Shown here: positions 42,083-52,239 of the stretch, piece after piece
How positions within the stretch are numbered: the first letter of the stretch is position 1
Layout: each line of letters opens with the position of its first letter
NCBI GenBank assembly: GCA_963704905.1
Contig: CAVPHZ010000002.1
Span: forward strand, 203,011 to 267,010
Source of the DNA: Candidatus Chisholmbacteria bacterium
GTDB lineage: Bacteria; Patescibacteriota; Microgenomatia; UBA1400; Chisholmbacteraceae
Length of the DNA stretch: 64,000 nt
Direction of reading: 5' to 3'
Translations under genes and position numbers: made by a program
The notes under the pieces: generated by a model
Seen by the model: the letters and a program-made list of their open reading frames with translations, nothing else
Told to the model about the DNA's origin: nothing
Databases searched by the model: none

Positions 42083-42265
42083 TTGACACATCCATTACAT
42101 ATTTGCTAAATATAACAATTATGAACAAAGTCTCTCAAACCTACATGCTTATTGATCCTATTTTTGTCCTTATTACCAAGGGCAGTTTTGGTTTGGGGGA
42201 AACGTTGTAAATAAAAATTAAAAATAAGCAAAAACACGAAACCTCCAAACCAGGAGGTTTTTTTG
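42083..42265 (+). promoter_or_regulatory. Candidate leader-peptide transcription attenuator. TTGACA-N18-TAAATA promoter, 29-codon leader ORF (42121-42210, MNKVSQTYMLIDPIFVLITKGSFGLGETL), antiterminator strand GGTTTGGGGG, terminator CCTCC-aaacca-GGAGG-U7.
   Basis: Seen directly: -35 TTGACA at 42083-42088; leader ATG at 42121 (near-leaderless); GGTTTGGGGG (42190-42199) is complementary to CCTCCAAACC (42242-42251) with one G-U; CCTCC (42242-46) also pairs with GGAGG (42253-57), followed by TTTTTTT. Confidence 0.45.
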
Positions 42266-42278
42266 TTTCTAAAGGAAT

Positions 42279-48044: not shown

Positions 48045-48119
48045 GGGGCGGGTAGCTCAGCTGGTTAGAGCGTTACGTTGACATCGTAAAGGTCAGAGGT
48101 TCGAGCCCTCTTCCGCCCA
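48045..48119 (+). tRNA. tRNA-Val (anticodon GAC)
   Basis: Manual fold: acceptor GGGCGGG, D arm GCTC-AGCTGGTTA-GAGC, anticodon stem TTACG/CGTAA with loop TTGACAT, T arm AGAGG-TTCGAGC-CCTCT. TACAAT -10 box 11 nt upstream. Confidence 0.9.
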
Positions 48120-48126
48120 CCCAGCT

Positions 48127-48418: not shown

Positions 48419-48811
48419 ATGCCGGATGAACAAGGCGAACAATCCCAGATAAAAAGAGAGGGAAAAACAATCTACGAAGCAGGATACGGGGCCATCTTCG
48501 CGCGAAATTTTGTCGCTGGTTTTAGCAGAGCACTAGGTTCAATTTTTGTGTATCTGATACTTGGAGGATTACTCTATGCGCTGGTAACAACCTATATCAT
48601 CCCTCAAGTCCAACGTATACTTCCAGAATCATTCCCTTTCTTCGGGCCATCGCTTCTGCAACAACTCCAAACCCAACCATTATCTGAGGAAAGCTTGCAA
48701 AACAACCCAACATTTACAGTCTCACCGGAACAGGTAAATAACGCATTGGACATTATTGAACAAGCTCAGCATGAACAGCAAAAAACACCAACGCCGACAC
48801 CTTCAGAGTAA
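48419..48811 (+). CDS. Hypothetical membrane protein (130 aa, one TM)
   Basis: TM helix IFVYLILGGLLYALVTTYII; Gln-rich C-terminus. Confidence 0.4.
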   Translation: MPDEQGEQSQIKREGKTIYEAGYGAIFARNFVAGFSRALGSIFVYLILGGLLYALVTTYIIPQVQRILPESFPFFGPSLLQQLQTQPLSEESLQNNPTFTVSPEQVNNALDIIEQAQHEQQKTPTPTPSE

Positions 48812-48872
48812 AATGTCCATGCAATTTCACAATCGTAAACTGAAGAATACGATTCCCATCTTCTAGTATTCG

Positions 48873-49038
48873 TTGACAGCCACTGCTATACTATTTAGTA
48901 GAAACAATCTTTGCCTTGATCCAGCCTCACCAATTGGGAAGCAAAGCGTCAACCCGCGAACGGGGAGAATAAAGACCAAATCAGGATGGAACCGTCTTGA
49001 GCGCAGCGAAAGACTCCTGAATAAGGGGTCTTTTTTTT
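48873..49038 (+). promoter_or_regulatory. Candidate T-box leader upstream of thrS (promoter TTGACA 48873-78; antiterminator with UGGAACC bulge; terminator 49011-49038)
   Basis: Seen directly: AAATCAGGATGGAACCGTC matches T-box consensus AAUUAGGGUGGNACCGCG. Helix A1 CAGGA/TCCTG, 7-nt bulge TGGAACC (48987-93), helix A2 GTCTT/AAGAC, overlapping terminator AGACTCC-tgaataa-GGGGTCT followed by T8. Confidence 0.55.
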
Positions 49039-49094
49039 GTATTCGTTATAAATTTTAGATAATATGCTTCCCGCCGAAGTGTCTGATCTCGAAC

Positions 49095-50945
49095 ATGGCA
49101 GGATGTGCAATTAGTCGAAACTCGCGAAACGAAGAAGGGTATCCGAATATAAATATGTCAATGCAAAACAGCCATACAGATAAAGCTGACAAATTCTTGT
49201 CAATTCGTCATAGTGCAGAACACGTCCTCAGCCAAGCTATGCTGAAACTGTTTCCTGGCATCAAAATGGCCATGGGACCAGCTACAGAGGATGGATTTTA
49301 TTTCGACTTTGATCCAACCGCAAAGGGTGGGGGAGAACACAAAATCAGTGAGGATAATTTTCCCCAAATCGAAGCAGAGATGAAAACAATAATGTTAAAA
49401 GATCTGCCAATCAAAAAAGAGGAAATTTCAATCAAACAAGCACGTGAATTATTTAAAGGAAATCCATACAAACAAGAATGGCTTGATGAAATAGAATCCA
49501 AGGGGGAATCAGCAACTGTCTACTGGACGGGAGATGAGTTTGTCGATCTCTGTGCAGGGCCGCATGTAAAATCGACTGGGAGAATTACCGCATTTAAGCT
49601 GCTGAGTGTTGCCGGTGCATACTGGCGAGGAAGTGATAAAAATAAAATGCTCACCCGCATCTATGGTACGGCATTTGATAAACAGACTGATCTTGACCAA
49701 TATCTTATTCTTCTTGAACAAGCTAAGCAGAGAGACCATAGAAAACTTGGCAAAGACTTAGATCTTTTCACCTTCTCAGACCTCGTGGGAAAGGGGCTAC
49801 CGCTCTTCACTGAAAAAGGCGCTACCATCTGGAGGGAGATCGAGCGTTTCGTCGTTGATGAAGAAATCAAGCGTGGCTATAAACACGTTAAAACACCCAG
49901 CATTGCCAAAACCGATCTCTACAGAAAATCAGGACATTATCCCTACTACGCGGATACGATGTATCCTCCTATGACCATTGATGATGATGAACTCATCTTA
50001 AGGCCCATGACCTGTCCACACCACTTTGCGCTGTTCATGAGTAAACCTCGCAGCTATAAAGAACTACCGATCCGCTTTGCCGAAATGGCCTCACTTTATC
50101 GATACGAAAAATCTGGTGAACTCACTGGTCTCCTCCGAGTTCGGGAGTTTGTCCTGGCAGACTCTCACAATTTTGTTCGCAAAAATCAGGCTGCCAAAGA
50201 AGTTGGCTTCGTCCTCGACCTGATTGAATATATTGCCAAAGTGTTGAAACTCAAGATAGAAAAAGACTTCGTGTATCGATTATCCTTGGGAGATAGAAAC
50301 AACCTAAAAAAGTACTACGATGCACCAGAGCATTGGGAATTTGCAGAAAATCTCTTAAGAAGAGTACTCAATCAGAGAAAATCTCCATACTACGAAGCCC
50401 CAGATGAAGCAGCCTTTTATGGTCCGAAAATCGATGTACAAATGAAAAATGTGCTTGAAAAAGAAGAAACAGCCTTTACCGTTCAATACGATTTCTGCTT
50501 ACCAGCCAGATTTAATCTTTCCTACATCAATGAAAAAGGAGAAGAAGAACAACCGATAGTCATTCATCGATCATCCGTTGGAGCGATGGAGCGATCAATC
50601 GGTTTTCTCATCGAACATTATGCTGGAGCATTTCCGATTTGGCTTTCTCCCACACAAGTGAAAGTAATCCCTATATCAGATAAACACCTAGCATATGCAG
50701 AAAAGGTCACAAGCGCATTACGGCATGGAGATGTTCGGATCGAGATTGACGACCGCTCGCTCAGCATGCAAAAACGCATTAGAGAAGCAGAGCTACAAAA
50801 AATTCCTTACATGGCAATAGTTGGCGATCGAGAGCAAAAATCAAATACGGTCTCTGTCAGAATGCGAGGGGAAAAAGATCAAGGCAGCATGAAACTAAAC
50901 ATCTTCAAAGACAGAGTCATCCAAGAAATAGCAGAAAAATATTAA
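49095..50945 (+). CDS. thrS: Threonyl-tRNA synthetase (lacking N-terminal TGS domain)
   Basis: Second additional/editing-domain HxxxH region (RHSAEHVLSQAML), class II aaRS motifs, C-terminal anticodon-binding domain; conserved position before infC. Confidence 0.9.
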   Translation: MAGCAISRNSRNEEGYPNINMSMQNSHTDKADKFLSIRHSAEHVLSQAMLKLFPGIKMAMGPATEDGFYFDFDPTAKGGGEHKISEDNFPQIEAEMKTIMLKDLPIKKEEISIKQARELFKGNPYKQEWLDEIESKGESATVYWTGDEFVDLCAGPHVKSTGRITAFKLLSVAGAYWRGSDKNKMLTRIYGTAFDKQTDLDQYLILLEQAKQRDHRKLGKDLDLFTFSDLVGKGLPLFTEKGATIWREIERFVVDEEIKRGYKHVKTPSIAKTDLYRKSGHYPYYADTMYPPMTIDDDELILRPMTCPHHFALFMSKPRSYKELPIRFAEMASLYRYEKSGELTGLLRVREFVLADSHNFVRKNQAAKEVGFVLDLIEYIAKVLKLKIEKDFVYRLSLGDRNNLKKYYDAPEHWEFAENLLRRVLNQRKSPYYEAPDEAAFYGPKIDVQMKNVLEKEETAFTVQYDFCLPARFNLSYINEKGEEEQPIVIHRSSVGAMERSIGFLIEHYAGAFPIWLSPTQVKVIPISDKHLAYAEKVTSALRHGDVRIEIDDRSLSMQKRIREAELQKIPYMAIVGDREQKSNTVSVRMRGEKDQGSMKLNIFKDRVIQEIAEKY

Positions 50946-52080: not shown

Positions 52081-52164
52081 AATGATTCTGATGAAATTAA
52101 ACTCAACCACCACCTTTTTCTTTAGTCCACTGTAAACGAGGGGAGTGTTATTATGGAAAAACCA

Positions 52165-52185
52165 ACTCCCCAAGGGGAGTTTTTT
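52165..52185 (+). terminator. Intrinsic terminator after rplT (ACTCCCC-aa-GGGGAGT + T5), with an upstream alternative partner GGGGAGTG at 52140-52147
   Basis: Perfect 7-bp GC-rich inverted repeat followed by TTTTT; a third copy of GGGGAGT 25 nt upstream could form an alternative hairpin. Confidence 0.5.
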
Positions 52186-52239
52186 AATGTGATTAATTCT
52201 CGATACAAATGTAAGGCGTAAGTGTATTACAATAAACCT

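Follow-up and report, generated by a model that had tools for sequence, protein, structure and literature searches.

T-box riboswitches that act on transcription generally require a long Stem I carrying a platform that binds the elbow of the tRNA, as set out in a review of the family. A truncated Stem I is typical of the translational T-boxes of actinobacteria, for which the literature describes Stem II with its S-turn as then essential; the short-Stem I ileS T-boxes are of this kind (Sherwood et al. 2015, summarised in PMC7583486). For bacteria of the Candidate Phyla Radiation (CPR, or Patescibacteria), a full-text literature search for T-boxes returned nothing, a description outside the searched papers being possible, Rfam likewise reports none, and in a 2024 review of Patescibacteria riboswitches figure only as prospective tools. 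The leader considered here lies upstream of thrS, the threonyl-tRNA synthetase gene, on a 64,000-nucleotide (nt) stretch of contig CAVPHZ010000002.1 from a Candidatus Chisholmbacteria bacterium; the whole stretch is referred to below as the window. The complete switch occupies 48909-49038 on the + strand (about 130 nt) and ends 56 nt 5' of the thrS open reading frame (ORF). Comparison with related leaders and structure prediction suggest that it is probably a riboswitch of the T-box type, reduced in architecture, that senses tRNA-Thr and acts by terminating transcription.

An earlier note on this stretch had proposed a T-box-like leader with an antiterminator of canonical architecture. Comparative evidence supports the T-box reading, with a canonical architecture in the antiterminator only: all that stands for Stem I is a short hairpin, and neither Stem II nor Stem III is present. 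The note had also set the leader in the context of Firmicutes; by its ThrS relatives, the lineage is CPR/Patescibacteria and Microgenomates-like.

Structure and conservation of the leader

The elements of the leader that precede the terminator, all on the + strand, are as follows.

48909..48946, +: P1, the specifier hairpin (Stem I equivalent), 38 nt, defined by covarying pairs
48909-14 / 48941-46, +: helix P1a, 6 base pairs (bp), CUUUGC / GCAAAG, 100% paired across 10 leaders
48915-20 / 48938-40, +: internal loop of P1 resembling a kink-turn (K-turn), CUUGAU / GAA
48921-24 / 48934-37, +: helix P1b, 4 bp, CCAG / UUGG, 94% paired across 10 leaders
48925-33, +: apical loop of P1, 9 nt, CCUCACCAA
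48929..48932, +: specifier ACC (Thr codon) followed by the purine A, positions 5-8 of the apical loop, invariant in 8/8 leaders
48947..48965, +: small structured element at the position of Stem IIA/B, with a covarying helix S1
48947-49 / 48956-58, +: helix S1, 3 bp, CGU / GCG, 93% paired
48953-55 / 48962-64, +: possible helix S2, CCC / GGG, which would make an H-type pseudoknot; the alternative is a hairpin, CCCG-CGAA-CGGG
48966..48980, +: purine-rich linker AGAAUAAAGACCAAA, with RAG-type purines AAG at 48972-74
48978-96, +: string AAATCAGGATGGAACCGTC, corresponding to the T-box consensus
48981..49020, +: antiterminator, the minimum free energy (MFE) fold of a truncated transcript
48981-86 / 49015-20, +: helix A1, 6 bp, UCAGGA / UCCUGA
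48987-93, +: T-box bulge UGGAACC, 7 nt, an exact UGGNACC
48994-98 / 49010-14, +: helix A2, 5 bp, GUCUU / AAGAC
48999-49009, +: loop of the antiterminator

The antiterminator is the part of the leader that most resembles known T-boxes. When the 14-mer T-box consensus AGGGUGGNACCGCG is set against the window's AGGAUGGAACCGUC, 10/13 specified positions agree and UGGNACC is exact, which bears out the match that had been noted at 48978-96. The bulge and A2 were likewise found as the earlier note gave them, and its A1 helix, CAGGA/TCCTG, is present and extends by one further pair. In a truncated transcript that runs from the linker to the 3' strand of A1, the fold with A1, the 7-nt bulge and A2 is the MFE structure in the window and in the related leaders L076, L087 and L090 (4/4 tested; relatives are cited by locus label), and RNAalifold returns the same fold on an alignment that was not fitted to any model. 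Both helices covary, as evidenced for instance by the replacement of A-U by U-A in A1 of L076 and of UA by CG in A2. Of the TGGNA[AC]C sites in the 64 kb, only that of the leader lies between genes with a T-run and a terminator after it. The UGGAACC bulge region is conserved in the thrS leaders of relatives, and its variable base is A in 13/14 CPR thrS leaders, as expected if this position reads a lineage-constant discriminator base of tRNA-Thr.

The specifier hairpin also covaries, with double-sided compensatory changes at each P1a and P1b pair in the ten-leader alignment. Around the constant ACC-A the apical loop varies, with CUC, CUU or UUU 5' of the codon and a loop of 7 nt in L017. A Thr codon followed by a purine was recognised by eye in five further CPR thrS leaders, as ACC in L021, L064, L048 and L054 and as ACA in L046. 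Of the two ACCA occurrences that had been pointed out upstream of the antiterminator, the first (48929-32) is the specifier, displayed by the apical loop of P1, whose pairs covary, and a specifier loop of this kind is what the earlier note had proposed to look for; the second lies at 48975-78, one nucleotide from the position given for it (48974-77), in the linker at AAGACC. An apical-loop specifier is an established arrangement for T-boxes with a short Stem I (PMC7583486). The K-turn consensus (NNN-GA-N // N-GA) is fitted by the internal loops of L076, L087 and L090. The fit of the window (CUU-GA-U // G-AA) is imperfect, since its second sheared pair would be A.A; the GA motif of the K-turn is missing in about 29% of T-boxes (PMC11404447).

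The same hairpin could also be taken for a protein-binding site. Expression of thrS in E. coli is autoregulated by the threonyl-tRNA synthetase protein (ThrRS), at the level of translation and at the ribosome-binding site, through leader hairpins that mimic the anticodon arm of tRNA-Thr. This precedent, together with the presence of a leader hairpin with a loop of 7-9 nt, is what would suggest a ThrRS operator at the present locus. However, the loop displays the codon ACC with a following purine instead of an anticodon-like GGU, CGU or UGU and is complementary to GGU, and it is thus not an anticodon mimic; the UGGAACC bulge and the terminator logic would be left unexplained, and the leader stops well short of the ORF, whereas the E. 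coli version acts at the ribosome-binding site. A ThrRS operator is accordingly considered very improbable.

Between P1 and the linker, S1 covaries as CGU/GCG, CGU/ACG, CGC/GCG and GGC/GCC, and the counterpart of this small element in L003 is aligned by Rfam to T-box Stem IIA. The candidate pseudoknot stem S2 is plausible but statistically unsupported: 3-5 bp can be formed in 7/7 leaders, yet in single sequences this is no better than in shuffles. In L017, a plain 8-bp hairpin stands where the others have the candidate pseudoknot. The linker sequence AAUAA(A)G is kept in every member of the class, and AAGACC is invariant in the five leaders most like that of the window; the role of the purine string and of RAG in canonical T-boxes is described in PMC7583486 and PMC11297988.

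The leaders compared here were assembled from several sources. Within the genome collection, the best ThrS relatives are 58-64% identical and bear either the label candidate division WWE3 or an uninformative automatic one; Patescibacteria predominate in the list of relatives (Microgenomates, Woesebacteria, Shapirobacteria, Saccharibacteria and others), and the nearest proteins in a large protein collection, at 67-71% identity, include Woesebacteria and Roizmanbacteria. A (G)GUGGNACC motif followed by a terminator was found 5' of thrS in 9/72 genome-collection thrS loci, eight of them through the TGGNACC pattern (L003, L007, L021, L046, L048, L054, L061 and L064) and the ninth, L017 with UGGAACA, only through a covariance model. 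Two more leaders, L076 and L079, came from a metagenome pattern scan, and L087 and L090 from the DNA around close ThrS homologues. The metagenome scan was a single run with a pattern built from shared strings; it returned 14 stretches, of which L076 and L079 are real leaders (2/14) and the remainder chance matches in coding DNA, and it found no leaders of this type 5' of other genes. Eight leaders, measuring 121-147 nt each from the first hairpin to the U-run, form one class with a window-like subgroup (the window, L076, L087, L090 and L017) and an L003-like subgroup (L003, L061 and L079). No T-box is present at the thrS genes of the five top-ranked relatives in the genome collection (L001, L002, L004, L005 and L072), nor at those of some relatives with about 70% identity (L088/89 and L091-95), and the occurrence of the leader is thus patchy.

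Within the window-like subgroup, L017 (993-1120) is a variant without A2, in which UGGAACAUGGGA forms a loop closed by CUCAGGA/UCCAGAG. Between this leader and thrS lies an ORF of 114 amino acids (1139-1483) with no Pfam match.

Covariance models tie these leaders together. The first model, built from four window-like leaders that did not include L017, recovers four leaders outside its training set (L079 at 55.6 bits, L017 at 46.9, L061 at 44.4 and L003 at 33.9). These four aside, nothing in 503 kb falls below E=0.004 but two further CPR thrS leaders; L007 (25.3 bits) and L048 (20.8 bits) are recovered weakly. With the window left out and seven relatives used to build it, a leave-one-out model matches the window at 48905-49038 with 113.5 bits (E=2.5e-25), the runner-up in the window being 42160-42267 at 16.6 bits. 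In the ten-sequence alignment, 95% of pairing cells are paired, against 68% for shuffles and 35-50% for slid-partner controls, and double-sided compensatory changes occur at 24/24 modelled pairs; this alignment is itself fitted to the model, which counts against the weight of these figures, and it agrees with an explicit pair table from a plain MAFFT alignment and with RNAalifold on the unfitted alignment. The MFE z-score of the whole leader, -1.28, is unremarkable and uninformative.

The runner-up at 42160-42267 was judged to be noise: it consists of a hairpin and a terminator after an ORF of 29 amino acids, with no UGGNACC. This ORF (MNKVSQTYMLIDPIFVLITKGSFGLGETL) shares sequence with a hairpin, UGUCCUU-AUUACC-AAGGGCA; a strong terminator (AACCUCC...GGAGGUU + U7) comes next, and an ORF of 538 amino acids without a Pfam match lies further 3'; the segment as a whole (42123-42267) may be an unrelated attenuator.

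Terminator and the outer helix P0

Two pairings lead into the U-run at the end of the leader.

49008..49038, +: intrinsic terminator GAAAGACUCCU / AGGGGUCUUUU, with loop GAAUA and then a U-tract, from a terminator scan and the MFE fold of the full leader
48971-77 / 49027-33, +: alternative outer helix P0, AAAGACC / GGUCUUU, whose 5' strand lies within the linker and which encloses an intact A1, bulge and A2

The terminator stem (49008-49034) has 11 pairs and a 5-nt loop and runs into U8, the T-run at 49031-38. Its 5' strand is made up of the 3' strands of A2 and A1, the common segment being AAGACUCCU, and in the window antiterminator and terminator are mutually exclusive; the overlapping terminator that the earlier note had described, sharing the AGAC strand, is present. 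The full transcript of the window prefers the terminator, its 3' domain reaching -23.3 kcal/mol as compared with -13.1 kcal/mol in the shorter, antiterminator-only transcript.

In the relatives, the arrangement is different. P0 is found in all five window-like leaders, with 6-9 contiguous bp that always adjoin the U-run, and is coordinately longer in L090 (AAGACCAC/GUGGUCUU) and L017 (AAGACCACU/AGUGGUUUU). It is the MFE structure in L076, L087 and L090, where it is better by 7-10 kcal/mol than folds with the linker blocked, and it is the RNAalifold consensus on the unfitted alignment; in L017, no classical terminator can form. The best terminator stem in L076, L087, L090 and L017 is thus P0, which does not compete with A1 and A2, and this weighs against the switch as read from the window, in that textbook mutual exclusivity holds in the window and not across the subclass.

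These findings favour an alternative that retains the tRNA sensor and changes the switch. The operative terminator would be P0, enclosing an intact A1, bulge and A2, and uncharged tRNA would block termination either by engaging the purine linker, as a 'latch' equivalent to Stem III, or sterically. In the window itself, however, the MFE structure is the classical terminator, with the P0 state 3.3 kcal/mol above it. The pairs of P0 are nearly invariant and show little true covariation, so that confirmation by covariation is impossible; the conservation of AAGACC may have another cause, and no known T-box has such switching. This alternative deserves to be taken seriously while being the less probable course of events. 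On the folding results, the terminator of the window-like subclass may nevertheless work by capturing the purine linker and not by unzipping A1 and A2. If so, the T-box fold would persist in both states, which for a riboswitch that senses tRNA would be a new way of switching. A Stem III-like upstream pairing in L090 (GUGG/CCAC) was considered as an antagonist of P0 and discarded, as it has no conserved counterpart in the window, L076, L087 or L017.

Promoter, proposed mechanism and the points that weigh against it

The flanking features of the switch, on the same strand, are the following.

48873..48878, +: TTGACA hexamer, a doubtful -35 element, 8 nt 5' of the best -10
48884..48892, +: extended -10 promoter element, TGcTATACT, identical in L087, L090 and L017
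49095..50945, +: thrS, the regulated gene (Pfam tRNA_SAD, tRNA-synt_2b and HGTP_anticodon)

The promoter appears to be of the extended -10 type. The string CTGCTATACT / TTGCTATACT is the same in L087, L090 and L017 and lies at an equal distance from the first hairpin, and a TGn-TAyAAT version of the -10 is present in L061 and L079; transcription probably starts at about 48899-48900. The TTGACA hexamer of the earlier note, for its part, is present and was rejected as a properly spaced -35 element, since only 8 nt separate it from the best -10; a consensus promoter scan did not flag 48873, and the hexamer is not conserved, being missing from the L087 and L017 leaders and standing 7 nt from the -10 in L090. 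The arrangement of TTGACA 7-8 nt 5' of a TATACT -10 does recur, at 48873-48892 in the window and at about 1310-1330 in L090; a function of this odd spacing, for instance in an overlapping second promoter, is offered as a suggestion only.

Gene order 3' of thrS is infC, rpmI, rplT and pheS. The listed thrS start is the ATG at 49095, and the alignment of homologues begins only at about residue 20-37; translation may in truth begin at an ATG at about 49155-49161 (MSMQN...), in which case the untranslated spacer after the terminator would be longer. A tRNA-Val(GAC) gene lies shortly 5' of thrS, at 48046-48121, in a synteny conserved in many CPR genomes (near thrS also in L001, L006-L009, L011-L013, L017, L079, L090 and others), and this is the commonest tRNA among the thrS loci retrieved, with 19 copies.

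On the reading of the leader as a T-box that senses tRNA-Thr, transcription would start about 10 nt 5' of the first hairpin, and the anticodon GGU of tRNA-Thr would pair with ACC in the 9-nt apical loop of P1. The 3' end of uncharged tRNA, predicted to be UCCA, would pair with UGGA of the bulge and stabilise A1 and A2. With AAGACUCCU held in the antiterminator, the terminator would be blocked and RNA polymerase would read into thrS-infC-rpmI-rplT; with charged tRNA, or none, the more stable terminator (49008-49034 and U8) would form and transcription would stop. Binding of tRNA, discrimination between its charged and uncharged forms, and readthrough are here inferred by analogy with known T-boxes, and the predicted ligand is tRNA-Thr(GGU) with the discriminator U73. 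The occurrence of Thr leader-peptide attenuators at the same gene in other CPR genomes indicates that there is selection at this locus for attenuation responsive to Thr-tRNA.

Several observations weigh against this mechanism. P1 is made up of two stems, of 6 and 4 bp, with an internal loop between them and a loop at the apex, leaving no room for the distal elbow-binding platform of Stem I. Stem II with its S-turn is absent, as only 0-1 nt separate P1 from the IIA-like hairpin (48946/48947) and there is no extra helix. The Stem III hairpin is also lacking and only its purines remain (AGAAUAAAG ... AAA in the window); no such hairpin is present at 48966-48980 of the window, nor in L076, L087, L090, L017, L061 or L079, L003 being the only leader that has one. 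The basal pair of A2, the steric sensor of the aminoacyl group, is G-C (G48994-C49014) and not a G.U wobble, and G-C is also the pair in the 6 other class leaders having A2 (L017 has none), although a G-C at this position is a functional substitute documented in streptococcal glyQS T-boxes (PMC11404447). Finally, no tRNA-Thr gene was found in the 64-kb window, in the 98 retrieved loci or in 19 kb around the thrS of L090.

The curated T-box model gives a further point of this kind. The gathering threshold of Rfam RF00230 is 93 bits, and the window gave no match at this score and, in a search restricted to 48780-49160, none even at E<=10, a negative outcome of the scan that the earlier note had named as a check; L076, L087 and L090 also have no match at E<=10. 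Matches below the threshold, judged to be non-random, were obtained for L003 (32.4 bits, E=0.0012), L021 (28.4 bits, E=0.012), L079 (24.1 bits, E=0.068) and L064 (22.1 bits). In the alignment of L003, 91 positions of the Stem I region form a large unaligned gap, and the rest of the leader is placed on the model's Stem II/IIA, Stem III and antiterminator. As the window is tied by the models to L003 and L079, and these to RF00230, a transitive chain connects the window with the curated family. TBDB works from the Rfam model together with one for actinobacteria, and the leaders described here would be expected to escape both. A match of Rfam Phe_leader to the terminator of the leader, in the scan of the window, was dismissed as meaningless.

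The absent modules raise the question of whether the leader is a degenerate T-box, one that no longer binds tRNA and either serves as a constitutive partial terminator or responds to some other signal. Three modules held necessary for tRNA binding and charge sensing are missing, no Rfam match is obtained, and L017 has even lost A2. Such a relic is nonetheless unlikely, because the specifier loop, bulge and helices are kept with compensatory changes among genomes that share only about 50-70% identity in ThrS, and ACC-A and UGGAACC stay constant (UGGAACA in L017); a relic would not stay under such selection. Rather more can be said, tentatively, for an unrecognised minimal class of transcriptional T-boxes in Patescibacteria, in which a sensor of about 100 nt would rely on the apical-loop codon and the bulge only, and in which the terminator would capture the purine linker (AAGACC/GGUCUU); this wider proposal is possible while remaining on the doubtful side.

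Probable leader peptides at related loci and comparison with known systems

Ribosome-mediated attenuation is a further mechanism by which thrS could respond to threonine. Runs of Thr codons are found in mini-ORFs of 12-40 codons 5' of thrS in 33/80 CPR loci, as compared with 1/80 in a control region, each within about 320 nt of the gene; examples are MKKYFICTTTTTSP, MKQLNTTTTTSF and MHSIQILTTITTTFR. The loci concerned are L002, L004, L005, L014, L015, L018, L022-L024, L026, L031-L033, L036, L037, L039, L040, L042-L044, L053, L057-L060, L062, L069 and L091-L094. In L091-L093, the stop codon of the mini-ORF lies inside a hairpin, followed by alternative GCGGGG/CCCCGC pairings and a terminator. 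From their sequences, these mini-ORFs look like ribosome-mediated Thr attenuators, commoner in CPR than the T-box-like leader.

In the window, the spacer between rplT and pheS (52082-52190) contains the mini-ORF MILMKLNSTTTFFFSPL, then GAGGGGAGUG ... ACUCCCC-aa-GGGGAGU + U6, with alternative hairpins, and is by analogy with E. coli pheM-pheST a leader-peptide attenuator for Phe (perhaps Thr). Faint matches to Rfam Phe_leader fall at the same place in L079 and L090. In the case of L003, the T-box-like leader (1170-1320) is accompanied, 3' of its terminator, by a mini-ORF MIFTRITTTMPIRI (1366-1410) before thrS, and the two may represent a tandem of both sensing mechanisms; interchange of T-box and leader peptide at one gene is a known pattern (PMC2965389). 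The thrS leader of L007 (1378-1495, CPR3, GGGGGAUGGAACCCUCC...) runs at its 3' end into AAGAGGUGAUUUUUUGUUAUG, a Shine-Dalgarno sequence and start codon, and from this arrangement it may act on translation, or at both levels.

For the thrS leader of the window, a leader-peptide attenuator would have to work through the ORF at 48873-49058 or another small ORF. The many Thr attenuators 5' of thrS in related genomes and the Phe attenuator 5' of pheS speak for it, but the leader has no run of Thr codons, and the ORF (61 amino acids) begins 5' of where transcription probably starts, matches no Pfam family and corresponds in L087, L090 and L017 to regions with stops in all three frames. By these sequence criteria the ORF is non-coding, as the earlier note had thought probable, and attenuation by a leader peptide is the most improbable of the explanations considered for this leader.

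If the leader is a T-box that senses tRNA-Thr, T-box regulation would extend to the Candidate Phyla Radiation, whose members are ultrasmall, mostly uncultured and have very few known regulators. Three rules would thereby meet a natural counter-example: the need of transcriptional T-boxes for the Stem I platform, the need of a truncated Stem I for Stem II, and the universality of Stem III. By sensing both the identity and the charge of a tRNA within about 130 nt, the switch would define minimal requirements for this function and would be a target for structural work and for small synthetic tRNA sensors. Curated covariance models would then miss a whole branch of the family, and censuses based on RF00230, such as TBDB, would under-count. 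With a T-box leader here and Thr leader peptides at this locus in sister genomes, there would likewise be a compact system in which to follow the mutual replacement of unrelated sensors in evolution.

Compared with described systems, the leader would share with leader-peptide attenuators (E. coli pheM-pheST and the thr operon leader) the setting of termination or readthrough by tRNA charging, and such attenuators are found at this very position in many related CPR genomes and also lie 5' of pheS in the window. Unlike these systems, in which ribosomes stall at runs of codons, the thrS leader of the window has no such ORF or run. The glyQS T-boxes are similar in being naturally reduced and transcriptional and in having no Stem II domain; they differ in that IIA/B is missing and a full-length Stem I with the elbow platform is retained together with Stem III. 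Their tolerance of reduction has been ascribed to strong GGC/GCC codon-anticodon pairing (PMC7583486), whereas the codon of the window is ACC.

With the actinobacterial ileS T-boxes of Mycobacterium and Nocardia, the leader has in common a short or 'ultrashort' Stem I, the absence of an elbow platform, an apical specifier and a IIA/B pseudoknot (a candidate one in the window) before the linker. The actinobacterial versions are translational, by sequestration of the Shine-Dalgarno sequence, and keep a long Stem II with the S-turn and Stem III, whereas the expression platform of the window is a hairpin with U8 that ends upstream of the ORF, with no Stem II or III. In contrast to the canonical class I T-boxes (RF00230; for instance, the B. 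subtilis tyrS and thrS leaders), the window leader is without the long Stem I and hence without an AG bulge or distal loop, presents its specifier apically instead of in a side bulge, lacks Stem II with the S-turn and Stem III, has G-C at the base of A2, measures about 130 nt and belongs to a CPR host. What it shares with class I is an aminoacyl-tRNA synthetase gene as target, a cognate specifier followed by a purine, a small element at the IIA/B position, purines (RAG...AA) 5' of A1, a UGGNACC bulge between A1 and A2, and a more stable terminator that shares the 3' strands of A1 and A2.

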